Shown one piece after another: positions 15,921-56,479 of a DNA stretch of 64,000 nt (the stretch's first letter is position 1; every line of letters starts with the position of its first letter). Made by a program: the position numbers and the translations under genes. The notes beneath the pieces are model-generated. The model did not search any database. It was not told where the DNA came from and worked only from the letters and a program-made list of their open reading frames with translations. The DNA lies in the NCBI GenBank assembly GCA_951812955.1, contig OX638340.1:2816001-2880000 (forward strand). Direction: 5' to 3'. The DNA comes from an uncultured Gemmatimonadota bacterium (GTDB taxonomy: Bacteria; JAAXHH01).

Positions 15921-17242
<1,322 letters not shown>

Positions 17243-17300
17243 GTGACCCCGTTTTTACTTTCTGCAACCGCTACTTTTTTGAAAAAAATGAAATAAAATG

Positions 17301-17661: not shown

Positions 17662-17934
17662 TTTGAAGGTTACTCGGATTCCTCGAACTCAAAATCGGTT
17701 TTTCGTTGCGTGTTCATGCCCTTGCACGCGACGGTTTGTATGTCGTTTCTTATGTAAAGGTATTTACGATTATCTATATTTATACGATTGCCCCACTACC
17801 ATCGCTGGAGGGAGGTGAGTGTCACGGAGTAAGGTTGTAGAATTCAAAGTCGAGAGAGCAATACTACGATACCGTCAGCAGGCCGGGGCAAGCTGACAAT
17901 AATCAGAAGGGCTCTGTTAATGAGGAGTGAATTG

Positions 17935-20900: not shown

Positions 20901-21012
20901 CTGGCAACGCCGGGGAGATCCCGTCGGTCTCACAGGCGGTCCTGTGGGCGGAATCGGCACGCAGGCCAACGGTCCTCGTGACATCTGGTTGGGTCTCAAC
21001 TTAGCATGGTAA
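17935..21012 (+). CDS. TonB-dependent receptor with N-terminal carboxypeptidase-regulatory-like domain
   Basis: Start at the ATG preceded by GAGGAG. Signal peptide ...LSISTDALAQ. CarbopepD_reg-like segment (VSGVVVDSETREPLPAASVQIEG...NVPPGNYTVVVNVIGY). Plug region, then a long beta-barrel rich in alternating aromatic residues, ending with a terminal aromatic (LNLAW). Confidence 0.85.
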   Translation: MSITISRALRFAFAFALVLSISTDALAQLSLGKVSGVVVDSETREPLPAASVQIEGTVLGAMANDMGEYFILNVPPGNYTVVVNVIGYVPVRAIGTEVHADLTTTMHFELDSTILDSAEAVEVVATRDLVEKSLTSTRTIVAAEEIQALPVTSIAEVVLTTAGSFGGRLRGGEANQSQTTLDGSTVTGQRTNESQAFAINPYMIQELEVKTGTFNAEYVNALAGITSVVTREGGASYNGNFEYRTLGQKGLNWAKPPELDIVDAYRAGTWSEADLRKVIQDAIDKTNEFNSDPARAEDGLRMQDPFDVLDMTGAPDSWSAIYKRDNYYWDYDRVIPEPEAITWSYLTDGLPEAQANSFAVDRSFHPDKYNQFAQNNRTEKRPVQIDFGMGGPLGDKLNWFASGRFAESWGRNPDDYIRVMNSFIKMTYRPTVSTKVTMSGLIEDTGFFSKKGQRGSASVGGTFDPGASNYGWKYNKEGLNQNFGGRVHVNASFTQTLSPRTFYEIRFSHLREYNERYNPKYGKEPLPSLTDAFIHSVGYSPLEQGSGTQVPYILYGDEAYSSIDFGNYTSRRPFKTDVSFAITSQVTSNHQFKGGFGVVMNDYEENTRGPARGNAVTLFNDLNRDPTASVLPLAGRQAHVYPFELFAYMQDRIEYGSLVVNAGVRLDMFDANANAINPYRPRPGPDPEHDDPEYRTLAPSMKTGLAPRLGISHPITDRAALHYSYGIFNQRPSLENLFTGLVQTSSFERNHGNPDLPFQKSTNYEMGLQAEVYPGYYLDVTGYFRDVNNLPLVWLFAPDVAFIGGSQREISILLPTFAQDTRGLEVSLRRQMANRFSLRANYTLAFTSNLTTPQTVRERGGETVLVFSDFVDGTPTPDTYIREFTQFDRRHRIVTNLLVELPYGISASVLTKAQSGNQYRTSSEQAIDPLGLLAASQRSPWTWTSDLYAQKNFDLGNVRLGVFAQVNNIFDRVNIYSITGGSNNASGDRWQRRGDPVGLTGGPVGGIGTQANGPRDIWLGLNLAW

Positions 21013-21101
21013 ATCCAACGCGGGAAGACGCGCAGTTAAAAGGTGTCTTCCCGCCAGGTTGGCGACGTTCGCAGAACGTTGCCGGCATAAGGAGGTTCAT
21101 T

Positions 21102-24100: not shown

Positions 24101-24305
24101 CACGATCTTCGACTCGGCCGGCCTTCAGGTTAAGCAGTTCTCAGTGCCTGGCGACCAGACCACGACGATCGGCGGTGTGACGGACTGGGATCTGAAGAAC
24201 GATTCCAACGTACCTGTTTCCAGCGGTCTGTACATCTGCGTGGTCGAAGCCGAAATTGGCGGCGTGAGCTACGCGAAAACGTTGAAACTCTACGTCCGGC
24301 GGTAA
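21102..24305 (+). CDS. large secreted protein of unknown function with C-terminal T9SS sorting (Por_Secre_tail/FlgD-Ig-like) domain
   Basis: TTG start 6 nt after AAGGAGG. N-terminal anchor or signal (YVTAGAVVFTTAIALGVAQ). FN3-like stretch (KYRVYRASGF). The last ~90 aa, VAPNPFVF...ITIFDSAGLQV...SGLYICVVEAEIGG...LKLYVRR, match the T9SS CTD pattern. No catalytic domain recognised. Confidence 0.7.
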   Translation: MKKWRRYVTAGAVVFTTAIALGVAQYLTALPDAPARSSATQGSPIPNELALDSRQDAYIGGQTYMAVMNSELTDTYTGVGWRGSGRSMSPTMGFPSYTFPAGGLDAPLWASAMGITAYQPNAVAGMPISRAEGDFIGTTNVYRAPPHQREQAPQGFWSDQGGSSSPGFAGGTVGPGGYREPFITETTFNTNAGIRVQRQSYSFSYGYGHTNDFILLRHVLNVHGEVDVNQDGMLEEGQNGGVTIRNFLIIFNYDFDIPWTNNPLLTGGAIGGGTGGDDKQPPAMFSRVMPRAVPEGLINSGRYNQAPYSDRFYSGLVTMFDEDDPGHPGIDSYVWNTTNGNFNPLHVGEASLIVLEGSGDEDPLGDLNNAAALDIYDAPSVGLFNTHEWWIADLRTVFGWYEGSLTKYLENKTVNVPGGSSAPHPDLFTSGSPLERNTDISTWTAKTQAGGSAEGMGLKWGDPRNLTQPGNPGTAAIGLQPGQYDSITLFDLDGVFAGIVPDPYNGSDTKDETSGAGCIRNALGWGPYTKAPGEDLSIWHVDLIGAGKDGAYDVYLRAQDVWMQRKYNMANNTYYWDGSNDRIIPVYNADGSIARDGADEAMTVTHNFGRGAASGALFHPAPPPTLSVFPTANGTIALAWANNAETAIDPGRGVVDFAKYRVYRASGFIDQFPTATVAHEVGYNSTVIPPNLGLSEGASAITDVTDPTTAAVKQGHPYARFIHEGLTLGADYNIGRVYDFVADDLVKRFAAPNFSGPYVQIAEFGGGGGNQTNSLNPPESVSYPNPYPAGSRIPGFEDDFIETTPSSTQIVQANNDLGATTAIATSFSDRYPDAVGSGDAQITSVGGILADPRLVGKSGYMFEDRSVLIGFSYWYYVAAVDNESAQQHDFDNYVADQGSSQRVITRTINGLESFYTMNANGTDGRWHGQYPYRGLSVGPQVPGQDVVPTTVARNEVAGGVAEFENLMTVAPNPFVFQAQWDLATKSQTVKFFNAPVPSRITIFDSAGLQVKQFSVPGDQTTTIGGVTDWDLKNDSNVPVSSGLYICVVEAEIGGVSYAKTLKLYVRR

Positions 24306-24316
24306 ACTTCGGTAAA

Positions 24317-24345
24317 GTCCCGCGCCATGCGTCATAGCGCGGGAC
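24317..24345 (+). other. intra-operon GC-rich hairpin (9-bp perfect stem, 11-nt loop), no U-tract
   Basis: GTCCCGCGC (24317-24325), loop, GCGCGGGAC (24337-24345), between the T9SS-CTD protein and the PorV-like gene. Confidence 0.5.
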
Positions 24346-24369
24346 GGTCCGATTCAGGGAGGTTATCTA

Positions 24370-25353
24370 ATGAAAGTATTTGTACGCTGGGGCGTGGTTA
24401 CCGGATTGCTGATGGCACTGTCAGCGCCGGTACATGCTCAGGTTTCCAAGGGTGGAACCGCCGCGACGAAATTTCTGACGCTTGATTCCAGCGCTCGTGT
24501 CGCGGGTGTTGCATCCTCTGCCACATCCTACACGGATCTTGGCGCTTTCTCTGCTCTGACGAATCAAGCCACCATGGTGTTCGTCGAGGGTAGAGGAGCA
24601 GTCGGCGTTTCCTATACACCGTATTTCGCGGAAATGACGCTGTTCAGTGCCGGTCTGGTGTGGAATCTCGGCGATAACGGCGCCGTGGGTCTGAGTGTGC
24701 ATTCGCTGCTTTCGGGCGACATACCCTATACCACATCCGGTGATCCGACGGGTCAATTTGCCACAGCTGGCCAGAACTTTTCCGTGTCTGACCTGGCCAT
24801 CGGTCCGAGTTATGCGCGTCGACTGACGGATTCATTCGCCGTCGGCGGATCGTTGAAGTATATCTCGGAAGGCACGAGCGGCGCTGGAGATGACGACCGT
24901 ACCAGCACAGCGGTCGCGGTGGACGTGGGTACGATTTACACCACGGATTTCCGTAATTTCCGTATAGGCGCCTCGTTCCAGAATTTTGGTCCGGACATGC
25001 AATTCATCGATGAATCGAGTGCTCGCGACCAGTTGCCTACGACGTTCCGTATCGGTTTTGCCGCTGAGCCGGCCGAACTGCCGACGGGAAGCGTGATGCT
25101 CAGCGCAGAGCTGTGGAAACTCCGCGAGTACGATTCAGTACTCAATCTGGGTATCGAGTGGTGGGTTAACGATTATATCGCGGGACGGGTTGGCTGGAAA
25201 GCCGGATACAGCGGCGGCCAGGATGAAGGCGTATCCGCCGGCGCAGGTCTCCGGTTCAGCCAGGGTGAATTGAGTCTCAACGTTGATTACGCGTATACGC
25301 AGTTTGAACTTCTGGACGATCTGCATCGCGTGTCCGTAGGTGTGGGCTTCTAA
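24370..25353 (+). CDS. PorV/PorQ family outer-membrane beta-barrel protein
   Basis: 327 aa. Signal peptide ...SAPVHAQ. The N-terminal block GGTAATKFLTLDSSARVAGVASSA matches the PorV/PorQ hallmark (GTxAxxFLxIxxxARxxxMG). Beta-barrel-like alternation, ending in F. Confidence 0.65.
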   Translation: MKVFVRWGVVTGLLMALSAPVHAQVSKGGTAATKFLTLDSSARVAGVASSATSYTDLGAFSALTNQATMVFVEGRGAVGVSYTPYFAEMTLFSAGLVWNLGDNGAVGLSVHSLLSGDIPYTTSGDPTGQFATAGQNFSVSDLAIGPSYARRLTDSFAVGGSLKYISEGTSGAGDDDRTSTAVAVDVGTIYTTDFRNFRIGASFQNFGPDMQFIDESSARDQLPTTFRIGFAAEPAELPTGSVMLSAELWKLREYDSVLNLGIEWWVNDYIAGRVGWKAGYSGGQDEGVSAGAGLRFSQGELSLNVDYAYTQFELLDDLHRVSVGVGF

Positions 25354-25409
25354 ACAAAAGGCCAGAGCGTACGGATGGATGTAAGAATATCGTTAGTTTG
25401 AAGTACCAG

Positions 25410-25447
25410 GAGAATCCCTCAGTCCGTTTGATGAGGGATTCTCTTAT
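25410..25447 (+). terminator. putative rho-independent terminator of the TBDR operon
   Basis: 12-bp perfect stem GAGAATCCCTCA / TGAGGGATTCTC with a 10-nt loop, followed by TTAT. Located 57 nt after the PorV-like stop. Confidence 0.6.
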
Positions 25448-25471
25448 GTAGTGAAAGAATTGAGGACGCTG

Positions 25472-27379
25472 ATGGGATTGAACGTGAGACGAAATATCAC
25501 ATACTGTTATGCATTAAAGTTTGTTGTAATCGTTTGTATGGCGGCTGCCTGTGTGTTGACCGGCCTGGACGCCATGGCCATACAGTTAAGCGGCACAGTG
25601 ACCGATGGGAAGGATCCCGTGCCGGGTGTCCGAGTTCGAGAACACGGTAAACCGAATTTCGTTGTGACCGATTCAGAAGGCAGATTCACCCTCAACATCA
25701 CCGAAGAACCCGTGCAGCAGTACGCCATAACGGCCGGTAAGGAAGGCTGGTTGAACGGCGGGGTCATGGTGGATCGAAAAACATCATATACGACGATTAT
25801 TATACAAAAAGTACCTGAAGAAATAGACACCTCGTACGATTTCATTACCCCCCACAAATCCCTGGTCGATCTGCGCGAGGAGCCGGAAGAGCTGGAGAGA
25901 CTCCGCGCGCAATCGCACACGGGCTTCGAGGAGGGGTGCAACCTCTGTCATTTCGAGCCGACCTGCTACCTCTGCCATAGAGATCTCTACGATCAATGGA
26001 GCACTTCGCAACACGCGAAGGGTGTCGACAACCCGTGGACGTTGAATCTTTACGATGGTACTGATGCGGACGGGAACGAAAACGTGGGACCGGGATTCAG
26101 GCTGGATTTTCCTGACGAAGCCGGAGAATGCGCCGATTGCCACGCGCCGTCAGCAGCTGTCGACGCGCCAGGGAAGACCGACTTGAAGGTAGTATACAAT
26201 CGTTCGCTGGCTTATCCGACCGTCCAGGACTACAAGACGCTCGAACGCATGGAATACGAAAGACTTGCCGGCTCGGTCGATGCCGCGGGAATTCACTGCG
26301 ATTTCTGCCACAAGATTCAAAATGTGGAAGTCAATGATCACGCGGGGGTAAATGGATCCATCACGCTGAACCTGGTGGCCATGGAAGAGGAAAAGCAGGC
26401 CCGGCTCATCAAGGGGAAGTTCCCGCCGATATTCGTGTACGGACCCTATGACGATGTTATAAATTTCACCCCATTACCGGGTTCATCCAACACCTCACCC
26501 ATGGTGGCGAGCTACAATCCGATCTACACGAGCAGCGACTACTGCTCCGCCTGCCACCAGCACAAAAACAAGCACGGCCTTCCGTTCATGGATACGTACC
26601 AGGAGTGGAAGGATAGTCCCTATTCCGCCATGGGCATAGAATGCCAGGACTGCCATATGAAGCCGGAGTCCGACGGTTTCACCTTTGGTTCTTTCGTGAA
26701 CGGCGACGCGGAGAAGTTCTGGACACCCATCGGATACCGGGACCCGACAACCGTTAAAACGCATGGGTTTCCGGGGGCCACAGAGACGCTCCTGCCGAAC
26801 GCCGCGACCCTGGCCATCAATTCCGTTGTTTCCAATGGACTGTTGACGGTGACCGTTGACGTGCGTAACGTCAATACGGGGCACCATATACCTTCGGGTA
26901 TCACCATCAGGAATATGCTGTTGCTCGTTACGCCCGTTCTGGCGAATGGAGATACCTTGCGTTACGTGGGGGACCAGCGTGTTCCGGTTTACGGCGGCGA
27001 AGGCGACCCGGCCGAAGGAAATTACGCGGGCTACCCGGGTAAGGGATTCGCCCTGGTTTTCGGTGATGACGCCGGCAACACCCATGTCATGGACTGGCAG
27101 GCGACCCGCATTGTCGAGGACACGCGAATCAAGGCGCGAGAGGCAGATCGTTCCGTATATACATTTGAAGTACCATCGGACATCGAGCGCGTGGATGTTC
27201 ATACGGATCTGATTTATAGAAGAGCATTCAAACCGTTGGCCGATCTCAAGAAGTGGACGCAGAAGGATATGAACGTGGCGTCGGACATCACCACGGTAAG
27301 GCCAGTTGGACAACTCGAAGTTTCCACTCCTTCGAAAGGACTGAGCCTCCGCGATCGTATCAGATCCTACTTCGATTGA
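25472..27379 (+). CDS. multiheme c-type cytochrome (6 CxxCH) with N-terminal carboxypeptidase-regulatory-like domain
   Basis: Six heme-binding motifs: CNLCH, CYLCH, CADCH, CDFCH, CSACH, CQDCH. N-terminal membrane anchor. CarbopepD_reg-like LSGTVTDGKDPVPGVRVRE...DSEGRFTL. ATG 25472 is preferred over the GTG 25451 of the ORF track. Confidence 0.85.
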   Translation: MGLNVRRNITYCYALKFVVIVCMAAACVLTGLDAMAIQLSGTVTDGKDPVPGVRVREHGKPNFVVTDSEGRFTLNITEEPVQQYAITAGKEGWLNGGVMVDRKTSYTTIIIQKVPEEIDTSYDFITPHKSLVDLREEPEELERLRAQSHTGFEEGCNLCHFEPTCYLCHRDLYDQWSTSQHAKGVDNPWTLNLYDGTDADGNENVGPGFRLDFPDEAGECADCHAPSAAVDAPGKTDLKVVYNRSLAYPTVQDYKTLERMEYERLAGSVDAAGIHCDFCHKIQNVEVNDHAGVNGSITLNLVAMEEEKQARLIKGKFPPIFVYGPYDDVINFTPLPGSSNTSPMVASYNPIYTSSDYCSACHQHKNKHGLPFMDTYQEWKDSPYSAMGIECQDCHMKPESDGFTFGSFVNGDAEKFWTPIGYRDPTTVKTHGFPGATETLLPNAATLAINSVVSNGLLTVTVDVRNVNTGHHIPSGITIRNMLLLVTPVLANGDTLRYVGDQRVPVYGGEGDPAEGNYAGYPGKGFALVFGDDAGNTHVMDWQATRIVEDTRIKAREADRSVYTFEVPSDIERVDVHTDLIYRRAFKPLADLKKWTQKDMNVASDITTVRPVGQLEVSTPSKGLSLRDRIRSYFD

Positions 27380-27478
27380 CGGGTTTGGCATGTGCAAGTT
27401 GTCGATACGTACATCGGCACCTGGACAACCTGTTCAGATGCCGGGATTCCCGCCCTGATTCGGTAACCTCACGAGCAT

Positions 27479-29095
27479 ATGCGCAATATCCTTCTCGCAG
27501 CCTTTCTGCTTTACACCCCTCTGCTTACGGACACCGGTCCATACCTCACGTACATTTCCACCGTCCGTCAGGATGAATCGTCCAGGCAAATTTCGCCCGA
27601 GGATGAGAGCCGTCTGCTTGAAGACGTGATGTATTTCCGGCAGCAGATTGAGCAGAACAGGAGCGAACCCGCCAACTACTTCAATCTGGGTCTCGCGGCC
27701 GTTGCCCTGGACAAGCTGGCCACGGCGGAAGCGGCATTCCAGGTTGTCACCAGTTTGCGCCCCGGAGATGTCGACGCTCATTTCAACCTGGGTATGGTTT
27801 ACGCCCGGCAGGACCGGTACGACGAGGCGATCAAGGCATTCAGCCGAGTTGTGGAAATGGATCCCGAGCGTGCAGAACCTTACTACAACCTCGGCCGGGC
27901 CTATCAGATATCTGGAATGCTGGTGGAATCCATAAAATCTTTTGTTAAGGCAACGACGCTGGACCCCGACAACAGCCTGTTTCAGTACGGTCGGGGGACA
28001 ACGGAAGAGAAGATGGGCGCCCTGGGGGAGGCCGCCGTTTCCTATTCCAATGCCATATCCATCGATCCGGAATTCGTCGACGCCCGGTATGCGTTGGGAC
28101 GCGTACTGTTGGATCAGCGGAAATTCCAGGAAGCCCGGGATGCCTTTCGCGAAGTGCTGCGCGTAGATTCCGGCAAGGCGGAGGCATACTGCCAACTCGG
28201 TGTGATCGCGCTGAGCGAAGGCCGTGTCGACGATGCGGTCCGGGCGTATGAGAACGCCAGGCAGATAGATGAAGCATCGGTGGAGGCCATCGCGGGAATT
28301 GCCCAGGCTTCGTTGCGTGCGGGACAGACTGAACGGGCGGTATCGCTGTACCAGCAGGCCTTAACGATAGATTCAGAATCGCCTACCCTGCATTACCATG
28401 CGGGCACGGCTTTCGCGGCCGCCGAGCGCTATGAAGAAGCGTTGGACGCCTTTGCGGGTGCGATAGAACGCTATCCGGAGTATCCCGAGCCCTACCTGTC
28501 GATGGGTAACACGCTCAACGCCCTGGGGAGGGGGGATGACGCCGGGCCGTTTCTCGAAGCGTTCCAACGGCTCAACGCGTTCAAGGAGGAGTTGTCGCAG
28601 GCGGAAGCCTTGGTACGCCTGAATCCGCGGGTAGCGGAGGTACATTACAACATGGCAACGGCCCTGACCCAGCTGGGCCGGTACGAGGATGCCGTGCGGG
28701 AATTTCGGATCGCCACGGAACTGGCGCCTCGTTTCGTTCACGCCTATAACAACCTCGGCGTCGCCTATGTTCAACTCGGCAAGTTTGACGAAGCCCGCGG
28801 CGCCTACCAGCAATCGATCCTGCTGGATTCGACCTACGTAGAGGCCTATACGAACCTGGCATGGCTCTTTGCCGAACACGGCGAAAACCTGGACCGTGCC
28901 CTGGAGCTGGCCGACAGGGCGGTCGAGATGGCTCCTACGGTCGTCTCCTACGAAACGCTGGCGGTCGTGCGGAACGCGGGAGGGGATTATGCCGGGGCCG
29001 ATGCGGCTATGCGGAATGCAATCCGTATCGAACCTGATAACGAGGTATTGCGGCAACGTTGGGAGCGGATCAGGCAGGAAAGGAACGGATCATGA
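27479..29095 (+). CDS. tetratricopeptide (TPR) repeat protein
   Basis: 538 aa. N-terminal hydrophobic leader. More than 10 consecutive 34-aa repeats with the A-x3-Y/F-x-A-L/I-x2-P/D pattern (e.g. AHFNLGMVYARQDRYDEAIKAFSRVVEMDP). Confidence 0.85.
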   Translation: MRNILLAAFLLYTPLLTDTGPYLTYISTVRQDESSRQISPEDESRLLEDVMYFRQQIEQNRSEPANYFNLGLAAVALDKLATAEAAFQVVTSLRPGDVDAHFNLGMVYARQDRYDEAIKAFSRVVEMDPERAEPYYNLGRAYQISGMLVESIKSFVKATTLDPDNSLFQYGRGTTEEKMGALGEAAVSYSNAISIDPEFVDARYALGRVLLDQRKFQEARDAFREVLRVDSGKAEAYCQLGVIALSEGRVDDAVRAYENARQIDEASVEAIAGIAQASLRAGQTERAVSLYQQALTIDSESPTLHYHAGTAFAAAERYEEALDAFAGAIERYPEYPEPYLSMGNTLNALGRGDDAGPFLEAFQRLNAFKEELSQAEALVRLNPRVAEVHYNMATALTQLGRYEDAVREFRIATELAPRFVHAYNNLGVAYVQLGKFDEARGAYQQSILLDSTYVEAYTNLAWLFAEHGENLDRALELADRAVEMAPTVVSYETLAVVRNAGGDYAGADAAMRNAIRIEPDNEVLRQRWERIRQERNGS

Positions 29096-29120
29096 ACCAA
29101 TACAGTGGAAGGAGAAGCGG

Positions 29121-30248
29121 ATGAAGCGGGTGAAGTCCAGGGTGTTGCCGCTCCTGGCGGCGGCACTTGTGATGGGTTGCGCGGAAGCGGACGATGACGG
29201 GATGTGGCGTGGCAGAACGGAAGTGGTCGCGGGAGCCTCAAGGGTCATAAGCGATGCGCCAATCCGGCACTCACCCGATCAGACGGCAGACGTCACGCTC
29301 GAAGAGGACCTGGTGATTGATGGCGGCGAGGACCGGTCGTTCTCGTCGGTTTTCGGGATCACCACGGATCGGAACGGCAACATTTACGTGGCCGACTCGG
29401 AACAGAAGCGCATACAGAAGTTCGATGAAACCGGTTCGTTTCAGACGTCCGTAGGGTCGTCGGGCGTGGGACCGCTGCAGTTCAAATCTCCTGTGGATAT
29501 GGTGCTTGACAGCGAAGGGCGGTTGTTCGTACTGGACAGCGAACTCGACCGGGTCACGGTATTTAATCCGGACCTGAGTTTCGCCGACATCTGGCAAACG
29601 CAGGTTACGAAGCCCCGCCGCATACGTATAGACACCGAGGGTAACGTGCTTGTCTTCGTCATTACACAGCATGATCTCATCTACAAATTCAGTCCGAACG
29701 GCGATCCGATTGCGAAGTTCTACAATCCCATGGAAACCATGCGGCGTACCGGAACCCTGACAGAGTTCATTGCATATTCCGACGCGGCCATGGAGTCTAC
29801 AGAGGACGGGTACGTCGTCGTTTCCGCAAGACACCCCTACAAGATAAGTAAGTTTGACCGGGTAAACGGACTGGAATTGGAATTTTACCGGACCACTTCC
29901 TTTGATATGAAGCCGCTGGGACGGTGGACGAACACGCAGCATCCACCTCCCGTCGGCGTGTCCGGCGGCCTGGCCGTACTGCCCGACGGACGCATCATGA
30001 ACACCATACAGTACCAGGAATTCGAACAGGTGGGGTTGAACACCATGGGCATGCCCCAGTTGAAAATGACGAAAATGGATCGATGGTACGATTTTTTTAC
30101 TCCGGATGGCAAATGGGAAATGACCGCACAGTTCGCCGTGAGCGGAGTTCCCATGCACGTGGACCGGCAGGGCCGTATCTATTTCGCTGATTTGGCCGAA
30201 GACAGAGTCGTCAGGTACAACTTTGTTTTTCCTGAGGAGTACAACTAG
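29121..30248 (+). CDS. NHL-repeat / six-bladed beta-propeller lipoprotein
   Basis: Start at MKRVKSRVLPLLAAALVMGC (lipobox) preceded by GGAGAAG. NHL-like blades (GNIYVADSEQKRIQKFD, GRLFVLDSELDRVTVFN, GRIYFADLAEDRVVRY). Confidence 0.75.
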   Translation: MKRVKSRVLPLLAAALVMGCAEADDDGMWRGRTEVVAGASRVISDAPIRHSPDQTADVTLEEDLVIDGGEDRSFSSVFGITTDRNGNIYVADSEQKRIQKFDETGSFQTSVGSSGVGPLQFKSPVDMVLDSEGRLFVLDSELDRVTVFNPDLSFADIWQTQVTKPRRIRIDTEGNVLVFVITQHDLIYKFSPNGDPIAKFYNPMETMRRTGTLTEFIAYSDAAMESTEDGYVVVSARHPYKISKFDRVNGLELEFYRTTSFDMKPLGRWTNTQHPPPVGVSGGLAVLPDGRIMNTIQYQEFEQVGLNTMGMPQLKMTKMDRWYDFFTPDGKWEMTAQFAVSGVPMHVDRQGRIYFADLAEDRVVRYNFVFPEEYN

Positions 30249-48836: not shown

Positions 48837-50051
48837 ATGGCTGCGCGTGAAAAACCCATTTCCGACGAAGAGCGGGCTTTCTGGGCGGATATACGCCGTC
48901 AGTTCTACCTCGAGGACGGCGTGACTTTCCTCCAGGGCGGTTCGGTAGGTCCGTCCGCGAAGCCCGTGATCGAGCAGGTGATCGATTGGTTGCGCCAGGT
49001 GGAGGCGAATCCGCTTTACAACCAGCGTGAGCAGGTCATGGGGTCTCGGGTCGAGGCGGCCCGCGAAAAAGCAGCGCATTTCACCGGTGCTTCGGCCAAA
49101 AACGTGGCCCTGGTGCTCAACACCACGATGGGCATGAATGTACCCGCCCGCGGACTGCCCCTGCAGCCCGGCGGCGAGGTGCTGATGAGTGACCAGGAAT
49201 ACCCCTCGGTCCAGCGCATGTGGGAGCACATGGCCAGGACGCAGCACGTCCTGGTCCGGAAGGTTCCGCTGCCCACGCCGCCCGATTCGCCGCGAGAGAT
49301 CGTAGACGCCTTCGCCGCCCATATCACACCGCGGACCCAGGTCATGGTCTTCTCACACGTCTATTGCACCACCGGTCTCGTGGCGCCGGTCCGCGAACTG
49401 ACTGCCCTGGCCCATGACCGCGGCGCGGTCGCCGTGGTGGACGGCGCGCACGCGGTCGGGATGGTCCCGGTCGACATCGAAGCCTGGGGATGCGATTTCT
49501 ACGCGAGCAGCACGCACAAGTGGCTGCTCGCGCCCAAGGGCACGGGAATCGTATACGTGGCCGATCCTTACCTGAGTTCGCTACCGGCGCCGATCCTGGG
49601 ATACAATACGGCGCCGTTCAGCCACGCGAGACGATTCGACGTGACGGGGACCCACGATACGACCCATTTCGCCGGACTGGGCGCGGCCATCGATTACCAG
49701 CAGGACATCGGATGGGAAGACCGGATCCGGCCCTACTGCCTGGGCCTGGCCCGGTACCTGCGCGAACTGGTCGAGGAGGAGATCGAGGGCGCCCGCATGA
49801 CCGTGCCGCCGGGCTCCGAGATGTCGGGGTTTCTGACCTCCTTCACCATAGACGGGTGCAGCCTCCACCGCATCGTGCAAATCATGTGGGAGGAATACCG
49901 CATCCAGATCGCCGCGACCCGTGCGGGCGATCTACCCGTCTTCCGGATTTCCACCCATTTCTACGACAGTTACGAGGATATCGACCGGTTCATCGATGCG
50001 TTGAAGACCGTGCTTGCCACCCGGCGCGACGAAGTCTTCGAAGACCGGTAA
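48837..50051 (+). CDS. class V aminotransferase-fold PLP enzyme (cysteine desulfurase / isopenicillin-N epimerase-like)
   Basis: 404 aa. PLP-lysine block FYASSTHKWLLAPKGTG. RBS AAGGAGG upstream. Confidence 0.8.
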   Translation: MAAREKPISDEERAFWADIRRQFYLEDGVTFLQGGSVGPSAKPVIEQVIDWLRQVEANPLYNQREQVMGSRVEAAREKAAHFTGASAKNVALVLNTTMGMNVPARGLPLQPGGEVLMSDQEYPSVQRMWEHMARTQHVLVRKVPLPTPPDSPREIVDAFAAHITPRTQVMVFSHVYCTTGLVAPVRELTALAHDRGAVAVVDGAHAVGMVPVDIEAWGCDFYASSTHKWLLAPKGTGIVYVADPYLSSLPAPILGYNTAPFSHARRFDVTGTHDTTHFAGLGAAIDYQQDIGWEDRIRPYCLGLARYLRELVEEEIEGARMTVPPGSEMSGFLTSFTIDGCSLHRIVQIMWEEYRIQIAATRAGDLPVFRISTHFYDSYEDIDRFIDALKTVLATRRDEVFEDR

Positions 50052-50161
50052 TAGCTTGGCAATTCGGCACGCGAAGCGAAACGCTCCTTGAGAGCGGTCC
50101 GAAGCGAACAAGCTGTCCTGTCCCTGCCGACCCTGCCGTACGCGCGCAAGGTCCCGATCAC

Positions 50162-51547
50162 ATGTTCAGACTCGAATTCGACCGCGGGACCATCCTGGTG
50201 CATGGCGACAGAGCCACGGTGGCCGAGTTGAAGCTTCCGGGCTGCGCCTTTGACCGGCGGGTGTCGCTTTACCGAGCTCCGGCACGGCATTACCGCGAGA
50301 TCATAACGCGGCTGGCCGACCGGGGATTGACTTACCGGGACGACGCCCGGTCCTACGGCAAACTGGACCTGTCCTTTCAGTCGGACCGGTCTCCCTTCCC
50401 CTATCAACAGGAAGCGGTAGACGCCTGGTGGCAGGCGGGCGGCCGCGGCGTGGTCGTGCTGCCGACCGGGGCGGGAAAGACCTTCGTCGCACTGATGGCG
50501 ATGGCGCGGGTCCAGCGCGGCACGCTGGTAGTCGTGCCTACCATCGACCTGATGCAACAGTGGTACGGCGTGATCTCCAGCCAGTTCGATATCGAAGTGG
50601 GACTGATCGGCGGTGGCTACTACGACGTCGAGCCGGTCACCGTGTCCACCTACGATTCCGCGTACCTGCATATGGAACGGTTCGGCCACCGGTTCGGCCT
50701 GGTGATCTTCGACGAATGCCACCACCTGCCGGGACCCTCCTATCTGATGACGGCCGACCTGTCGCTGGCGCCTTACCGGCTCGGGCTGACGGCCACGCTC
50801 GAACGGGAGGACGGCGCGGAACACCAGTTGAAGGACGCGATCGGAGAGACCGTCTACCGCCAGGAGATCCGCGCGCTAAGCGGGGAATACCTGTCCGGCT
50901 ACGAAACGATAAAAGTCAGTGTGCGCCTTTCCCCGGAAGAACGCGAGGAATACCAGGAGGAAAGGAATACCTACCGCGCGTTCCTGGACAGCCACCGGAT
51001 CTCGTTGTCCGGGCCAAATGGATGGGTCCGTTTTCTGGCGGCGACGTCCCGCAGCGAAGAAGGCCGCCGGGCATTCACGGCCTACCGTACCCAGAAGGCC
51101 ATCGCCCAGGGTTCACAGGCAAAGCTGCGCGTGCTGGAAAGATTGATCCGGCAGCACCGCCGCGACCGCATGCTCATCTTCACCAGCGACAACGAAACGG
51201 TCTACCGCATATCGCGCCGGTTTCTCATTCCAGCCATCACGCACCAGACCAAGGTGAAGGAGCGCCAGGAATTGCTGGCGGCGTTTAACGCCGGTGAATA
51301 CCCCTTCCTGGTCACCTCCCGCGTACTGAACGAAGGGGTCGATGTCCCCGAGGCCAACGTGGCCGTGGTGCTGTCCGGTTCCGGTAGCGTAAGGGAACAT
51401 GTACAGCGTCTCGGCCGCATTCTCCGGCGTGTCGAGGGGAAGCACGCGATCCTGTACGAACTCGTGGCGGAGCAGACGGGCGAGGAATACGCGAGCTCGC
51501 GGCGAAGGCAGCACAGCGCCTACCGGAAAGCCCCGGAAGGGAGGTAA
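50162..51547 (+). CDS. XPB/ERCC3(Rad25)-type SF2 DNA helicase
   Basis: 461 aa from MFRLEFDRGTILVHG (DRD-like N-domain). Walker A VLPTGAGKT. DExH as IFDECHH. XPB-specific RED motif in GLTATLEREDG. Motif VI region VQRLGRILR. The ORF-track extension back to 49490 overlaps the previous gene and was rejected. Confidence 0.85.
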   Translation: MFRLEFDRGTILVHGDRATVAELKLPGCAFDRRVSLYRAPARHYREIITRLADRGLTYRDDARSYGKLDLSFQSDRSPFPYQQEAVDAWWQAGGRGVVVLPTGAGKTFVALMAMARVQRGTLVVVPTIDLMQQWYGVISSQFDIEVGLIGGGYYDVEPVTVSTYDSAYLHMERFGHRFGLVIFDECHHLPGPSYLMTADLSLAPYRLGLTATLEREDGAEHQLKDAIGETVYRQEIRALSGEYLSGYETIKVSVRLSPEEREEYQEERNTYRAFLDSHRISLSGPNGWVRFLAATSRSEEGRRAFTAYRTQKAIAQGSQAKLRVLERLIRQHRRDRMLIFTSDNETVYRISRRFLIPAITHQTKVKERQELLAAFNAGEYPFLVTSRVLNEGVDVPEANVAVVLSGSGSVREHVQRLGRILRRVEGKHAILYELVAEQTGEEYASSRRRQHSAYRKAPEGR

Positions 51548-51550
51548 GGC

Positions 51551-52801
51551 ATGCTGACGGGTGACCTCCTCCGCGTCCGTTTTCGTAAGGGCCGGATCCA
51601 TCTTCCCTATATCGATGATCAGGATCCCGATCACCTCGGGATCGCCGAAACGCTGATCCGGATTTTCGAAAACCACGAGGGCGGAACCCGCCAGGAACTG
51701 GATGAAGAGCTGGCGGATACGACCGGCAGCGGGACGGAATTCCTGTTTCATCGCGGACTGGCCAAGTTGCTGCGGGACCGCTGTACGTTCGAGTCGGCGT
51801 CACCCGTCGACCCTGCGGATCTTCGAAGGCGGATCTTCGCGGCCGCTGCCGCGGCATACAGCACGGATCAGGTCCGCATCGACCGGGAGGCCATTCTGGC
51901 CGCGGCGGGTGCGCCGGACGCCCTGGATGTCACGCAGGTGGAAGGAACTTTCTACGCCGATCTGAAGGAAGCCGAACGGCTCAAGTCATTCAAGCCCTGT
52001 ACGCCCGGATGGCTCTTGAGCAGGTACAACGTCGCCCTGGCCCAGGCCGCCCTGCTGCGGGCATCCGGAATGGATATGCTCGTGGAAGGAGAAAGTCCGG
52101 CCCGTTATCGTGAACTCTTCCGCAAGATGAAGTTCTTCCGCCTGCTCCACGAAATCCGGCAGACCGGTCCGGGGAAATACCACGTTCACGTTGACGGTCC
52201 CATGTCGCTCTTCAAGTCATCCCAACGCTACGGACTGCAGATCGCCCAGTTTCTCCCTTCCGTGCTGCACTGCCAAACCTGGCAAATCACGGCTTCTATT
52301 GTCTGGGGCGCCGCGCGCCGTGAAGGTGTATTGAAATTGACGCCTGAAACGGGGTTGAAACCGGTAGGCCCTTCTACGGGACAGTGGATACCCGAAGAGG
52401 TGGCCTGGCTCGAAGACCGGTTTAACCGGCTTAAAACGGATTGGCGCATTTCGGCCGGGACGGACGTCATCGACCTGGGCGGCCAGGGTGTACTGGCTCC
52501 CGAGTATATCCTCACCCATCTACCCACCGGGATGAGCGTATACCTGGAATTCCTCGGATACTGGCGCTCCGAAGGTGTGAGGACGCGCCTGGAACTGCTG
52601 GGCAGATACGGCCCTCCGAACATGATCCTGGCGATTTCCGCGGAACTGGGCGTGGATGAAGAAGCATCGACGGATATTCCCGGCGAGGTCTATGCGTACC
52701 GACGGACACCCGTCGCCCGCGACATCCTGAAAATCCTGGAAAACATGGTTAAAACCCATCCAGGCGCATCGGCGGGAACCCTGGATTTGTTCGACCCCTA
52801 G
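51551..52801 (+). CDS. DUF790 family nuclease (Bax1-like, XPB partner)
   Basis: 416 aa. N-terminus MLTGDLLRVRFRKGRIHLPYI. Central SRYNVALAQAALLRA...LFRKMKFFRL. C-terminal nuclease-like block PEYILTH...VYLEFLGYW. Starts 3 nt after the XPB stop. Confidence 0.75.
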   Translation: MLTGDLLRVRFRKGRIHLPYIDDQDPDHLGIAETLIRIFENHEGGTRQELDEELADTTGSGTEFLFHRGLAKLLRDRCTFESASPVDPADLRRRIFAAAAAAYSTDQVRIDREAILAAAGAPDALDVTQVEGTFYADLKEAERLKSFKPCTPGWLLSRYNVALAQAALLRASGMDMLVEGESPARYRELFRKMKFFRLLHEIRQTGPGKYHVHVDGPMSLFKSSQRYGLQIAQFLPSVLHCQTWQITASIVWGAARREGVLKLTPETGLKPVGPSTGQWIPEEVAWLEDRFNRLKTDWRISAGTDVIDLGGQGVLAPEYILTHLPTGMSVYLEFLGYWRSEGVRTRLELLGRYGPPNMILAISAELGVDEEASTDIPGEVYAYRRTPVARDILKILENMVKTHPGASAGTLDLFDP

Positions 52802-52846
52802 GCGGGCATAAATGGGTTGATTTGTCCGTCCGGCGCGTTTAAGGTT

Positions 52847-55576
52847 ATGGCCATGTCGTCCCATCCCTCCATTTCCGTTTCGTCACCCTGGATTACCCGT
52901 GGTTTCGAGGCGTTCCGCCAGGGAACCTTCGGCAATGGCGGCCAGAATCTCTACGTGTCCCGAGCTGGTGTCCTGCAGCGCATACACCAGTTCGACCTGG
53001 ACCGCGACGGCCACGTCGACCTCGTCTTCTGCAACAGTCAGAACCACGGTGAAAAGCCTCCGGTAACCGTGTACCATGACGTACTCGGCCAGACCGCTTC
53101 CAGGTCCCTTCCATCCGACGGCGGAAGAACCGGAGTCGTCGCCGATCTGAACGGGGACGGATACGACGACCTGGTCGTCGGCATGTTCTACAACGGGATC
53201 CGGCGGGACCTCAACGCGTATCTGTACTACGGCGGTCCGGACGGGTTCGGCGAGCGGCGCGTGCAGTACCTGCCTGTTCCTTTTTGTACTTCGGTTGCCG
53301 CCGGGGATTTCGACGGGGACGGGCTGCCGGACCTGGCCTTCGTTTCCGACGGCGGCGTGCGGCTTTTCCTCCAGACTTCGTTGGGATTCGAGCCTAAAAG
53401 ATACCGGGATCTCGACATAGCGGCCAACCAGGTCGCGTCCGACGACCTGGACGGCGATGGTTACGCGGACCTGGTCGTGCGTGCCGCGGAGGGATTGGTC
53501 AGTATATACTGGGGTGGTCCGGACGGGTTAGACCCGGACAGATCGTCTCAGATACCCATCGATGCCGACCCGTCGGAAGAACCGGATTCAGGCCATGACG
53601 GTTATCCCGAGGATGTCGATCCCGCCGTTCCGCTGGTATCCGTTGTCAGAATCCACGACATCCCCCACGTATTCGTCGCCCGAGCCGCTGCGGCATGCCT
53701 GGCGCCATTCGATAACAGCCGGGAACCCGGTCCACCGCTACGCCTGCCTTGCCGCAATGCGCTTGCCGTTGCCGCGGGCGACCTGGACGGGAACGGTCGG
53801 ACCGACCTGGTCGTGGCCTGCCGGGACCGGCACAATGGGGCGGAGTGTTCGTGGGTGTACCGCGGAACGGTGGACGGTTTCAACGACGCGCACCGTACCG
53901 CGATTCCGAGTCTATTCGCCTGTGACGCGGCCCTGGACGACCTGGACGGGGACGGTCGGGATGAAATCGTTATCTGCCAGACCCACACGCCGGAAAGCTA
54001 TACGTCGGAATCCCGCGTGTACTGCTGGACGGGGGAGGGATTGTCGGCGCCACGGGCCCTGGAGACCCACGACGCCCGGCGGGTACTGATGGCGCGAGCC
54101 CCGGACGATCCCAGGCCGCGGGCCGTCTTCATCAACCAGTTCAGCAGAAACCTCATGGGGGATATCCCCGTTTACATCTATCACGGCAGTCCGGATGGCT
54201 TTTCAGAGGGAAACCGGCAGGAAGTCGCGGGCTGGGGGTCGGTCGAAGCGCTCCGCTGCGACGTGAACGACGACGGGCTGCCGGACTTGATCCTGGCCAA
54301 CGCGTCCGAGAACTCGGTGCGGCAAGATCCCGGATCCTACGTGTACTTCAATCGTGCCTGTACTTTCGGGAGCGGACCCAACCTGCGCCTGCCCACCGTC
54401 CGCGCCCACGGGGTGTGTTGTGCGGATCTTGACCGGGACGGGTATCTCGATCTCGTCTTCTGTGGATTCGACAATCCGGACATCGTGATATTCTATGGAA
54501 GCCAAGACGGGTTCGACACCGAAAACACTGAGCGAATCCGGCTCGAATACGAGGGCGTCGTCTACAAGGACCCTCGATGGATATTCCTTGTAGACCTGAA
54601 TGGCGACGGCTGGCTCGACCTGGTCGTGCCGCAGATCGCGGACGATTACAGCTTCATCCTCTGGGGCGGACAGGAAGGGTTCAGTATGGACCGATGCCAG
54701 GCGCTTTCTGTCTGGCACGGCGCGTGCGCCCGGGCGGCGGACCTTAGCGGGAACGGGTATCCCGACCTGGTCATCGGCGGCCACGAACCTTCCCACGGGG
54801 CCCCCCACGATTCCTTCGTGCACATCTACTGGAACGGTCCGGACGGCCTGCGCGAGGACCGTCGCACCCTGTTGCCCGGCAACGCGGTAAATGCCATGTC
54901 GATCATGGATTTCAACGGGGACGGGTTGCTCGATCTCTTCATCTGCTCCTACCACGACAACCGGGTACGGGACATCGATTCCTTCATTTACTGGAACCGG
55001 CCCGATCTCGGTTTTTCTACCGACGATCGCACCCGGCTGTTCACCCATTCCGCGTCGGGTTGTATGGCCGCCGACTTCGACGGCGACGGTTATGTCGACC
55101 TCGCCATCGCCTATCACAAGGTTGAAGGCGACCACGTAGGCTTCTCCGCCGTCTGGTGGAACGGCTCGGACGGGTTCGACTCTCGACGGGTGACCCGCTT
55201 GCCCACGAACGGCCCCCACGGCATGACCGCCGTACAGCCTGGAAACATGCTGGACGCGGGTCCCGAAGAATACTACGTCTCCGCGCCGCACGAGATGCCC
55301 CATGGCCAGTCCGTCACCGCCATCGCCTGGGAAGCGGAATACGGACCCGGGACCTGGGTGCGCGTCCAGATCAGGCGGGCGGATACGGCGGAGGCGCTGA
55401 ACTGCGCCACCTGGCAGGGATCGTCCGGAGATGATTCCTGGTACAGGCGGCCTGGCCCGGTGTCGTTGCCGGGTGAAGACACCGGGGCCCGGTGGATACA
55501 GTACCGCCTCGCGCTGGGTGCGGAAAACGGAGGCAGTACGCCCAGGGTAACAGAAGTCCGGATCGAAACAGATTGA
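52847..55576 (+). CDS. FG-GAP/VCBS repeat protein (about 12 calcium-binding DxDxDG blades), no recognisable signal peptide
   Basis: 909 aa from MAMSSHPSISV. Twelve D-x-[DN]-x-[DN]-G motifs followed by D(L/I)(V/I/A/F/L), e.g. DLNGDGYDDLVV, DFDGDGLPDLAF, DLDGDGYADLVV, DFNGDGLLDLFI. Confidence 0.8.
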   Translation: MAMSSHPSISVSSPWITRGFEAFRQGTFGNGGQNLYVSRAGVLQRIHQFDLDRDGHVDLVFCNSQNHGEKPPVTVYHDVLGQTASRSLPSDGGRTGVVADLNGDGYDDLVVGMFYNGIRRDLNAYLYYGGPDGFGERRVQYLPVPFCTSVAAGDFDGDGLPDLAFVSDGGVRLFLQTSLGFEPKRYRDLDIAANQVASDDLDGDGYADLVVRAAEGLVSIYWGGPDGLDPDRSSQIPIDADPSEEPDSGHDGYPEDVDPAVPLVSVVRIHDIPHVFVARAAAACLAPFDNSREPGPPLRLPCRNALAVAAGDLDGNGRTDLVVACRDRHNGAECSWVYRGTVDGFNDAHRTAIPSLFACDAALDDLDGDGRDEIVICQTHTPESYTSESRVYCWTGEGLSAPRALETHDARRVLMARAPDDPRPRAVFINQFSRNLMGDIPVYIYHGSPDGFSEGNRQEVAGWGSVEALRCDVNDDGLPDLILANASENSVRQDPGSYVYFNRACTFGSGPNLRLPTVRAHGVCCADLDRDGYLDLVFCGFDNPDIVIFYGSQDGFDTENTERIRLEYEGVVYKDPRWIFLVDLNGDGWLDLVVPQIADDYSFILWGGQEGFSMDRCQALSVWHGACARAADLSGNGYPDLVIGGHEPSHGAPHDSFVHIYWNGPDGLREDRRTLLPGNAVNAMSIMDFNGDGLLDLFICSYHDNRVRDIDSFIYWNRPDLGFSTDDRTRLFTHSASGCMAADFDGDGYVDLAIAYHKVEGDHVGFSAVWWNGSDGFDSRRVTRLPTNGPHGMTAVQPGNMLDAGPEEYYVSAPHEMPHGQSVTAIAWEAEYGPGTWVRVQIRRADTAEALNCATWQGSSGDDSWYRRPGPVSLPGEDTGARWIQYRLALGAENGGSTPRVTEVRIETD

Positions 55577-55618: not shown

Positions 55619-56479
55619 ATGCGCGCAGAACAGGTCGTCCTCGACTCATTGCGCCAGTGGGCGGAAGAGCATGACAACATCCGCGGCATGGTCCTGACGA
55701 GTTCCCGGGTCAACGAAGACGCGGTCCTGGACCTGATGTCGGACTACGACGTGGAGGTCTATGTGACCGACCAGCAGTGTTTCGCGGGGGGCGATGAATG
55801 GCTGGAGGCATTCGGCCCCGTGTTAATACGTTGGCCTGCGTGCCCTGCCTGGGACGAGGAGGGCGGGTTGTATCGCCTTGTGATCTATGAAGACGGCGTA
55901 CGGATCGACTGGGGAGTAAAAAAGGTTGAGCAAATGAAAAGGTTCAATGGTCCTTCCCAACCCTACAGAGTGCTGGTGGACAAGGACCGGCGCGTCGAAA
56001 ACCCGCTCCAGACGAGTTATGCCGGTTTCAACATCACCCGGCCTTCGAAGACAGAATTCGATTCGATGATGCATGACTTCTGGTGGGACCTCACCTACGT
56101 GGCGAAAAGTCTCTGGCGCGACGAAATTTACTGGGCGAAGTACATGTATGGCAGACGGCACTTCAAGGAGCTCGAAAAGGTCATCGAATGGTACATCGGC
56201 ATGCATCACGAATGGTCTGTCAACACCAACAAGCACGGCCGGTGGTTCAAGCGGTACCTGGACGAAGATACGCTGGAAGAAATCGATTCCACCTTTGCGG
56301 GCGCGGATATCAAGGAAAACTGGACCGCGCTGTTCAACATGACCCGGCTGTTCAGGCGGCTTTCCGTCGCGGTCGCAGATGAACTGGGTTTCGATTACCC
56401 CCATGATTCCGACCGGCGCGTTACGGCGTACATGGACAAGATCAGGCGCCTGGACCGGGACGCGGAGGATTTCGTATGA
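55619..56479 (+). CDS. aminoglycoside 6-adenylyltransferase (ANT(6)/AadK) family nucleotidyltransferase
   Basis: 286 aa. Collinear with B. subtilis AadK as I recall it: MR.EQ...IR..VL..SR.N......SDYD...YVTD. Pol-beta NTase motif SS-x12-DYD. The RPS..EFD....FWW...YVAK.L.R.E block is also present. Confidence 0.8.
   Translation: MRAEQVVLDSLRQWAEEHDNIRGMVLTSSRVNEDAVLDLMSDYDVEVYVTDQQCFAGGDEWLEAFGPVLIRWPACPAWDEEGGLYRLVIYEDGVRIDWGVKKVEQMKRFNGPSQPYRVLVDKDRRVENPLQTSYAGFNITRPSKTEFDSMMHDFWWDLTYVAKSLWRDEIYWAKYMYGRRHFKELEKVIEWYIGMHHEWSVNTNKHGRWFKRYLDEDTLEEIDSTFAGADIKENWTALFNMTRLFRRLSVAVADELGFDYPHDSDRRVTAYMDKIRRLDRDAEDFV

Follow-up and report, generated by a model that had tools for sequence, protein, structure and literature searches.

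The window analyzed here, by which we mean the whole 64,000-nucleotide stretch of contig OX638340.1 from an uncultured marine Gemmatimonadota bacterium, carries two adjacent genes on its forward strand, xpb (50162-51547) and bax1 (51551-52801); all motifs described below lie on the same strand. The first gene encodes a 461-aa superfamily 2 (SF2) helicase/translocase of the archaeal XPB type, a type with the domain order DRD-HD1-RED-ThM-HD2, where DRD is the damage recognition domain, and the second encodes a 416-aa DUF790/Bax1 protein with predicted endonuclease activity. In public records the two are labelled "DEAD/DEAH box helicase" and "DUF790 family protein". In the experimental literature XPB-Bax1 counts as archaeal and serves to model the way in which eukaryotic TFIIH couples DNA opening to incision.

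Relatives were collected by scanning two Bax1 peptide patterns over one genome per species, about 185,000 species genomes, of which 398 gave a match. The best 80 of these 398 form the locus set (L numbers), and their taxonomy follows the NCBI labels. Residue counts for Bax1 refer to these 80 bacterial loci and those for XPB to the 60-62 bacterial homologues covering the position. The carriers among the best 80 are Latescibacterota/Gemmatimonadetes metagenome-assembled genomes (MAGs), Zixibacteria, Planctomycetota, Acidobacteriota, Myxococcota, and other "Deltaproteobacteria", and the isolate names of several of the Latescibacterota/Gemmatimonadetes MAGs suggest sponge or coral metagenomes. The closest of the 80 is JAPOOT010000117 (Bax1 96% and XPB 98% identical), followed by the complete chromosome OY762445.1 (95% and 96%); the exact Bax1 sequence of the window had no match in the assembly index.

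The XPB and Bax1 proteins

The product of xpb matches the Pfam domains XPB_DRD, ResIII/DEAD, Helicase_C, and ERCC3_RAD25_C, in every case above the gathering score. XPB_DRD (PF18458) covers aa 4-62 (50171-50347) with 60.4 bits against a cut-off of 26, spanning positions 1-57 of the 57-position profile. Motifs I, II (DExH), III, V, and VI were all located and make up an SF2 helicase core, with key residues that are invariant in 60-62 bacterial homologues. The Walker A/motif I sequence PTGAGKT lies at aa 101-107 (50462-50482), its P, T, G, G, and K residues being identical in all 60-61 homologues that cover it, while motif II, the DExH box DECHH, is found at aa 184-188 (50711-50725), with the D, E, H, and H invariant in 62/62. 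Motif III and the XPB-specific RED motif are combined in TATLERED at aa 210-217 (50789-50812), where TAT occupies aa 210-212 and RED aa 215-217. The RED motif sits inside TATLEREDG, directly after motif III, and is aligned to TATFEREDG of Archaeoglobus fulgidus XPB (AfXPB); R215 and D217 are kept in 62/62 bacterial homologues and E216 in 46/62. A motif search places NEGVDVP at aa 390-396, and motif VI, QRLGRILR, was located by alignment and motif position at aa 415-422 (51404-51427).

The best PDB match of the window XPB is AfXPB (6p66_A/2fwr_A, E 1.5e-110), which is aligned over aa 4-453 with small gaps only and is 44% identical over 441 aligned positions, a span that takes in the DRD, HD1, RED, the presumed ThM, and HD2. 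The block of aa ~220-320, from HD1 to motif IV, aligns ungapped to AfXPB 236-335 and presumably includes the ThM. XPB2 of Sulfurisphaera tokodaii is matched with an E-value of 4e-97, in an alignment that begins at window aa 22 and chain residue 15, while eukaryotic XPB/Rad25 structures match far lower (~1e-26). Against the 548-position NCBIfam model NF045503, "DNA repair helicase XPB", the protein scores 239.5 bits in two partial stretches, the cut-off being 610. As judged by these profiles, it is a member of the XPB family that falls outside the long-form equivalog.

Another gene model, an open reading frame (ORF) of 685 aa from 49490, was rejected as the xpb gene, as it overruns the preceding aminotransferase gene in another frame. 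In more than 50 loci the alignment of the XPB homologues begins at residue 1-4 of the 461-aa protein, and the called XPB gene of the relative L088 is also 461 aa long; we therefore take the ATG at 50162 to be the real start. The 685-aa form appears to be a spurious upstream extension in GC-rich sequence.

The product of bax1 matches the Pfam family DUF790 (PF05626) over aa 1-396, that is, positions 1-387 of the 387-position profile, with an E-value of 1.1e-93 and 314.6 bits against a cut-off of 28.8. It is also matched by the Bax1 chains in the PDB (8gy8_A, 6p66_B, and 6p4w_B) with E-values from 3e-26 to 1e-19, S. tokodaii Bax1 (StBax1) giving 1.3e-19. An AlphaFold2 model built from 22 bacterial homologues has a pLDDT of 80.8 and a pTM of 0.73, and when it is compared to the PDB with Foldseek the top eight chains are all Bax1 (E 1.7e-26 to 2e-21, TM 0.50-0.64, ~405-430 columns), the next match having an E-value above 1e-3. 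On this model the layout would be approximately that of an N-terminal XPB-binding helical domain, a Cas2-like middle, a nuclease domain of the PD-(D/E)xK type, and a short C-terminal domain. The NCBIfam equivalogs for archaeal Bax1, NF053694 and NF053695, give 132.5 and 116.4 bits against a cut-off of 500, which places the window protein as a homologue, rather than an equivalog, of the archaeal subfamilies. For both proteins, the E-values rule out that the family matches arise by chance.

The window Bax1 is aligned to A. fulgidus Bax1 (AfBax1) over aa 1-361 and the multi-domain fold is common to both. The identity is nevertheless only ~22%, and the window protein, with 416 aa against 468, is without most of the long archaeal C-terminal domain. 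The nuclease-domain acids of AfBax1 are E275, D305, and E318 (PMC7293015). On alignment to AfBax1 and StBax1, the core of the putative nuclease domain (52397-52549) holds three acids, E283, E318, and E333. E283 (in PEEV, 52397-52399) is kept in 79/80 loci and corresponds to the glutamate in helix 1 of StBax1. For this first acid MAFFT and HMMER give different registers, pointing to E283 or to E288/D289, an acidic residue either way. E318 (in APEY, 52502-52504) is the equivalent of AfBax1 D305, and E333 (in YLEF, 52547-52549) that of AfBax1 E318; the latter belongs to the block VYLEFLGYW (aa 330-338), which is aligned to VYIEIAGFW of AfBax1 containing the active-site E318. Position 333 is Glu in 65/80 and Asp in 15/80 loci. 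Position 318 is Asp in 71/80 and Glu in 9/80, the Glu being confined to the nearest relatives of the window (L001-L008 and L011). From this distribution, the exchange of Asp for Glu is read as a conserved trait of the subclade and not as decay.

Residues of the XPB-Bax1 interface can also be traced. In S. tokodaii, mutagenesis combined with isothermal titration calorimetry (ITC) shows that mutation of Bax1 R86/R87/L89/F90 and of XPB E357/E360 weakens binding (PMC7293015). The Bax1 hot spot corresponds, in the alignment to 6p4w_B, to RRRIF at aa 92-96 (51824-51838), with R92/R93/I95/F96 replacing R86/R87/L89/F90, and neither R92 nor F96 varies among the 22 aligned bacterial sequences. On the XPB side, the alignment to 6p4f_A, the chain numbering of which is offset by +1 relative to PMC7293015, identifies the equivalents as the HD2 acids E367 and E370 in KERQE (51257-51271); E367 is kept in 61/62 homologues, and position 370 is E or D in 45/62. 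The interface residues are thus conserved in kind on both window partners. A further set of residues, belonging to a proposed second N-terminal site and the XPB interface and defined by the alignment to 6p66_B, consists of Y135 and D137 (YAD) and Y159 and N160 (RYN), at 51953-52030, which correspond to AfBax1 Y131/D133/Y155/N156. Across the bacterial loci D137 and Y159 are each found in 80/80 and N160 in 79/80, while position 135 is Tyr or Phe. This conservation on both partners supports a physical XPB-Bax1 complex, short of proof.

At the junction of the two genes, the xpb stop codon TAA (51545-51547) is followed by "ggc" and then by the bax1 ATG at 51551, leaving a gap of 3 nt on the same strand. 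Within the 3′ end of xpb there is a Shine-Dalgarno-like GGGAGG (51539-51544) at a spacing of 6 nt from the bax1 ATG, and because of this placement the two genes look like a translationally coupled operon. In other phyla the xpb and bax1 reading frames abut or overlap. Upstream of xpb, a GCAAGGCCC-like element at 50135-50150, 10-20 nt from the start codon, is conserved in L002-L021, and GCAAGGCCC is probably the ribosome-binding region of xpb. Scans with promoter and terminator consensus sequences near the operon yielded nothing exceeding the shuffled expectation, and no palindrome of the LexA/SOS type was seen in the clade-wide upstream alignment of xpb. The distance from the end of the aminotransferase gene to the xpb ATG is only ~10 nt in L013.

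The above results confirm, in all its elements and at the coordinates given, what the initial annotation of this DNA had described, a 461-aa SF2 helicase with a RED motif, a DRD-like N-terminal domain, and a DExH box, followed 3 nt later by a 416-aa DUF790 protein with a nuclease-like VYLEFLGYW block; it had taken them for a complete helicase-nuclease module in a bacterium. The helicase is borne out by Pfam and the motif positions, the second gene by the junction sequence, Pfam, and the AfBax1 alignment, and the module by the profile, solved-structure, and fold comparisons. The profile search that it had proposed recovers both DUF790 and ERCC3_RAD25_C, and the failure of the DUF790 assignment that it had considered did not occur.

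Linkage, synteny, and selection

The association of the two genes extends over several bacterial phyla. A full XPB is present in 59 loci, and in 56 of these its gene lies directly upstream of bax1, at a distance of at most 150 nt. The XPB and Bax1 identities to the window co-vary, with a Spearman coefficient of 0.91 overall and 0.75 outside the clade of the window, which together with the conserved interface residues is indirect evidence of a heterodimer. All-against-all clustering of the ORFs in 59 loci outside this clade gave XPB, Bax1, antisense shadow ORFs, and clade-specific synteny, and no third gene shared across phyla. It is only xpb and bax1 that stay linked.

The pairing itself is less new than the initial annotation implied, since an association of bacterial DUF790/COG3372 proteins with helicases had already been reported in 2005 and 2012. 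The 2005 survey placed DUF790/COG3372 next to SF2 helicases in Archaea and Cyanobacteria (PMC1189080), and that of 2012 added Deinococci and Rubrobacter (PMC3424549); in both, DUF790 is a predicted PD-(D/E)xK nuclease that usually stands beside an SF2 helicase (PMC1189080; PMC3424549). The COG3372/DUF790-COG1061 helicase pairing of these surveys is exactly the association seen in the window. Both predate the Bax1 name and structures, were made without analysis of synteny or selection, and did not cover Latescibacterota/Gemmatimonadota, Planctomycetota, Acidobacteriota, or Myxococcota. What is new here is the added phyla, the exclusive co-travel of the two genes, the conservation of interface and catalytic residues, the evidence from synteny and selection, and the Asp-to-Glu variant.

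Within the lineage of the window, the pair is part of a collinear block that is found in L002-L021 and consists of RtcB, TauD, a D-Ser-dehydratase-like enzyme, a sulfatase, a class-V aminotransferase, XPB, Bax1, an FG-GAP protein, ANT(6), and an aldehyde dehydrogenase (ALDH). In all, the pair and its flanks are in synteny in more than 20 related genomes at species level. Protein identities in the block are ~70-96%, Bax1 ranging within the clade from 70 to 96% and XPB from 88 to 98%. In L025, which is more distant (Bax1 59%), the sulfatase and ALDH likewise enclose the pair, and the aminotransferase, FG-GAP, and ANT(6) genes are unmatched. The pair is more stable than the genes on either side of it. 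The class-V aminotransferase gene (48837-50051) is absent in L008, L011, and L015, the gene of the 919-aa FG-GAP protein (52817-55576) is missing from L088, and ANT(6), which is streptomycin-adenylyltransferase-like (55619-56479), swings between 52 and 95% identity while its neighbors are at ~90%.

A second set of relatives was picked through the neighboring ALDH gene, so that their choice was not conditioned on having the pair. Where the ALDH is at least 87% identical, XPB and DUF790 are found at the same site in 4/4 informative contigs (L081, L083, L088, and L089). The initial annotation had asked whether the pair is core or patchy across related genomes; in the close clade it is syntenic in L002-L021 and present in the four ALDH-anchored contigs, while it is absent from the site in a sister lineage, which is considered in the next section.

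Pairwise Nei-Gojobori estimates between the window and seven relatives, the eighth (L025) being saturated at synonymous sites, give a dN/dS of 0.08-0.13 for XPB, similar to ALDH and the dehydratase-like enzyme, and of 0.13-0.21 for Bax1, similar to the FG-GAP and TauD genes. The dS of xpb and bax1 equals that of their neighbors at every distance, over divergences of up to dS ~1. The GC content around the pair is 0.61-0.64, the same as in the flanks. We take the synteny, the ALDH-anchored presence, the dN/dS, and the dS as evidence of vertical inheritance with purifying selection rather than of an island or a recent transfer; in the lineage of the window the pair behaves like housekeeping genes.

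These values bear directly on the possibility of an archaeal cassette, acquired recently or in decay, that has no current function and in which the exchange of Asp for Glu would mark the loss of nuclease activity. Such a view could draw on the Glu that replaces AfBax1 D305 in the window and nine close relatives, and on the faster evolution of Bax1 compared to XPB that is apparent from the identity ranges given above. However, both ORFs are intact in every relative, the low dN/dS is maintained over the whole range of divergence, and composition and dS are those of the neighboring genes. Furthermore, Glu is a conservative metal-binding replacement that has been kept across ~10 species, and in one relative the two acids are exchanged. 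We consider a nonfunctional cassette to be very hard to reconcile with these data. The relative in question, P0013, has D and E swapped between the two ligand positions equivalent to AfBax1 D305 and E318, and the D/E changes in the Bax1 metal site may represent a compensatory exchange.

The same results also concern a proposal of the initial annotation, namely that the pair, given its "accessory-gene surroundings", could serve nucleic-acid surveillance. The surroundings turn out to be metabolic and housekeeping genes on an ordinary chromosome, syntenic in the lineage. The window encodes a C-terminal processing protease, trigger factor, ClpX, Lon, SerRS, Pol III delta, RsgA, and PBP4, as well as PPDK, a SpoU methylase, transporters, sulfatases, and enzymes of amino-acid metabolism. 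A scan of the ORFs of 250 aa or more over the 64 kb revealed no integrase, transposase, restriction-modification, or toxin gene, nor any other gene of defence or mobile elements.

A surveillance or anti-phage/anti-plasmid module, in which XPB would translocate on foreign DNA and Bax1 would degrade it, has some points in its favor. XPB-like helicase cores do occur in defence proteins, and the window XPB partly matches PADLOC PbeA (8e-60, aa 171-440 only; 2023 version of the library) and scores 136 bits, against a cut-off of 600, with NCBIfam TIGR04095, "DNA phosphorothioation system restriction enzyme". The pair is also rare across bacteria, judging from the 398 matching species genomes, and the survey of 2005 had left a "selfish character" possible (PMC1189080). 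The matches, however, are partial and limited to the helicase core (PbeA, DinG, restriction enzymes, and Cas3), the restriction-helicase score is far under its cut-off, and the best match of XPB is the full-length archaeal protein including the DRD. PbeA and the Dnd-associated restriction helicases share the XPB-like SF2 core but correspond only to the C-terminal helicase half, with no match of the DRD to their profiles. Their partner genes are different, and the window has no phosphorothioation or other modification gene near the pair.

Bax1, for its part, matches 0 PADLOC families. No methylase, sensor, or other self/non-self component was linked to the pair in any phylum in the ORF clustering, and a scan of viral contigs with the Bax1 alignment returned no relatives, which leaves a phage-borne origin or use unsupported. 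A literature search for DUF790/COG3372/PF05626 in a defence context gave only the PD-(D/E)xK surveys and the Bax1 structure paper. To this are added the vertical inheritance in L002-L021 amid housekeeping and metabolic genes, and a dN/dS at housekeeping level with a dS equal to that of the neighbors. The initial annotation had itself named universal conservation and synteny in the lineage, together with a clear phenotype in nucleotide excision repair only, as the observation that would speak against its reading; on the side of conservation and synteny, surveillance loses on those terms. We thus regard a defence role as quite improbable.

Proposed function of the pair

The best explanation of the above data, which we hold to be probably correct, is that the two-gene operon encodes an orthologue, in a bacterium, of the XPB-Bax1 helicase-nuclease machine of archaea, and that the chromosome stably retains the pair for the maintenance of the cell's own DNA. 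It builds on what is directly observed at the locus, that is, the full-length family membership, the intact XPB motifs, the Bax1 acids, the operon, the two-gene linkage, and the selection. The closest structural counterparts are the same two-gene module of A. fulgidus (XPB-Bax1, PDB 6P66; XPB alone, 2FWR), from which the window pair differs in its bacterial host, and XPB2-Bax1 of S. tokodaii, solved with and without forked DNA (PDB 6P4F, 6P4O, and 6P4W).

The mechanism that we propose is modeled on the archaeal structures and assays (PMC7293015; PMC7672443, as summarized in PMC13024598). A 1:1 heterodimer would arise by docking of the N-terminal helical domain of Bax1 onto ThM/HD2 of XPB, and XPB would bind a junction between duplex and single-stranded DNA, such as a bubble or a fork. 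The ATP-driven closure of HD1 and HD2, with RED and ThM acting as a wedge, would then widen the opening, and the nuclease domain of Bax1 would thereby be placed to nick one strand at or near the junction, in the manner of the 3′ incision by XPG. From its genomic context, the substrate is expected to be the host chromosome (bulky lesions, crosslinks, or stalled fork or bubble structures) and not invading DNA, and, provided that the genome encodes UvrABC, the system would probably act beside it rather than in its place.

The analogy to eukaryotic TFIIH lies in the use of the XPB translocase to open DNA and position a structure-specific nuclease, with incision 3′ of the lesion (PMC7293015; PMC13024598), and in the shared RED and ThM elements (PMC7293015; PMC13024598). 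Unlike TFIIH, however, the bacterial pair comes without the TFIIH scaffold, p52/p8, XPD, and XPA, and a role in transcription is not expected in bacteria. The nucleases are also of unrelated folds, XPG being FEN1-like and Bax1 PD-(D/E)xK/VRR-Nuc-like. The bacterial XPB that has been studied experimentally is that of Mycobacterium tuberculosis, a 3′→5′ helicase and DNA-dependent ATPase (PMC3353954). It, too, belongs to the XPB family of SF2 helicases and carries a RED motif. It is nonetheless of the long, eukaryote-like form, with a distinct N-terminal domain and a ThM that is shortened or missing (PMC3353954), whereas the window XPB is of the short archaeal type. The mycobacterial protein also has no known Bax1 partner, and at the time of that paper no XPB-Bax1 complex had been identified in bacteria (PMC3353954).

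Several points weigh against the proposed function or limit its reach. First, complex formation, polarity, and the cut site of the bacterial pair are extrapolated from archaea, and there the two characterized complexes disagree. The ATPase of XPB is stimulated by Bax1 in S. tokodaii, whereas in A. fulgidus Bax1 dampens it (PMC7293015; PMC13024598). By itself, StBax1 is an obligate homodimer (PMC7293015). Because the two complexes differ in vitro, the behavior of the bacterial pair is not predictable from them. Second, the catalytic Asp that is Glu in the subclade of the window could alter metal binding or activity. Third, AfBax1 E135, which belongs to a proposed second active site in the N-terminal region, is replaced by K139 in the window, and the position is Lys or Arg in 73/80 bacterial loci.

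Fourth, the pair is not universal beyond the close clade. In the sister lineage (L084/L087, ALDH 81-82% identical), neither XPB nor Bax1 is found within 10 kb of the site, and the upstream region is rearranged, with arginase, GNAT, and Mla genes. Fifth, about 14 loci have Bax1 with no XPB within 10 kb (L049, L052, L059, L060, L062-L064, L066, L069, L070, L073-L075, and L079), so that Bax1 may also act without an adjacent partner. Their hosts are Isosphaeraceae, including the cultured Tautonia sociabilis (L060), other Planctomycetota MAGs, Myxococcota/"Deltaproteobacteria", and two Acidobacteriota. No substitute helicase was found upstream of Bax1 in these loci, the ORFs there being HemN-like radical SAM, ferrochelatase, ceramidase-like, or without Pfam match.

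Finally, the archaeal genetics offer limited guidance, since the deletion of XPB in Thermococcus kodakarensis results in only slight UV sensitivity, and no archaeal pathway of nucleotide excision repair (NER) has been defined (PMC7690668). These two facts are the reason to retain a further reading, in which the genes form a genuine XPB-Bax1 machine but its job is not the excision of lesions. It would instead act on stalled or reversed forks, R-loops, transcription bubbles, or intermediates of interstrand crosslinks. The archaeal complex acts in vitro on generic bubble, fork, and overhang DNA (PMC7293015; PMC13024598), and the Bax1 nuclease domain resembles structure-specific nucleases of the VRR-Nuc/FAN1 type (PMC7293015), both of which fit such a role.

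Bacteria, moreover, normally already have UvrABC for NER. On the other hand, nothing in sequence or context separates this reading from lesion excision, the damage recognition domain is retained, and no gene of replication or transcription accompanies the pair consistently. We judge a genuine machine with a task other than excision to be unlikely, albeit considerably more credible than a defence role.

Several bacterial phyla stably inherit the module with intact motifs and interface residues, only the two genes travel as a unit, and in the lineage of the window they behave like housekeeping genes. These findings make a good case for studying XPB-Bax1 in bacteria and do away with the defence-island interpretation. 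They leave the kind of system unchanged, their main value being a well-founded candidate for the first biochemistry and genetics of a bacterial XPB-Bax1. We put forward only tentatively the broader idea that bacterial XPB-Bax1 constitutes a second, UvrABC-independent incision pathway of archaeal type, long kept in several phyla, which could settle the role in vivo; the version in which XPB-Bax1 acts on foreign DNA is less likely still. If the idea holds, culturable carriers could decide between lesion excision and the processing of forks, R-loops, or crosslinks, a choice left open by the archaeal genetics.

Other features of the loci and the window

In Acidobacteriota, a clade-specific pair of ORFs of ~220 and ~1070-1200 aa lies 3′ of Bax1. 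It is found in L034, L036, L043, L044, L048, L049, and L051-L053, one of which is labelled only "bacterium", and thus also in L049 and L052, both without XPB.

The region 16000-30000 of the window has a lower GC content than the remainder (0.54-0.59 vs ~0.62). It encodes TonB-dependent-receptor-like and PorV-like proteins, TPR and NHL-repeat proteins, and a 1099-aa ORF (21006-24305) without Pfam match, and may be a laterally acquired outer-membrane or secretion cluster.

Downstream of the operon, the region 56615-63313 holds a cluster composed of an ALDH7-like aldehyde dehydrogenase, two PhyH-type dioxygenases, and a 1041-aa fusion protein that joins a phosphotransferase (APH), a Peptidase_M23 domain, and a class-III aminotransferase. 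The cluster is also present in L081, L083, L088, and L089 and in the sister lineage L084/L087. A hydroxylysine kinase of the APH type, a class-III phospho-lyase, and an aminoadipate-semialdehyde dehydrogenase together make up a route for the breakdown of hydroxylysine, an amino acid of collagen. The cluster may be a route of this kind, a reading that becomes plausible if its host lives in symbiosis with sponges or corals, a lifestyle to which the isolate names of the closest relatives point.

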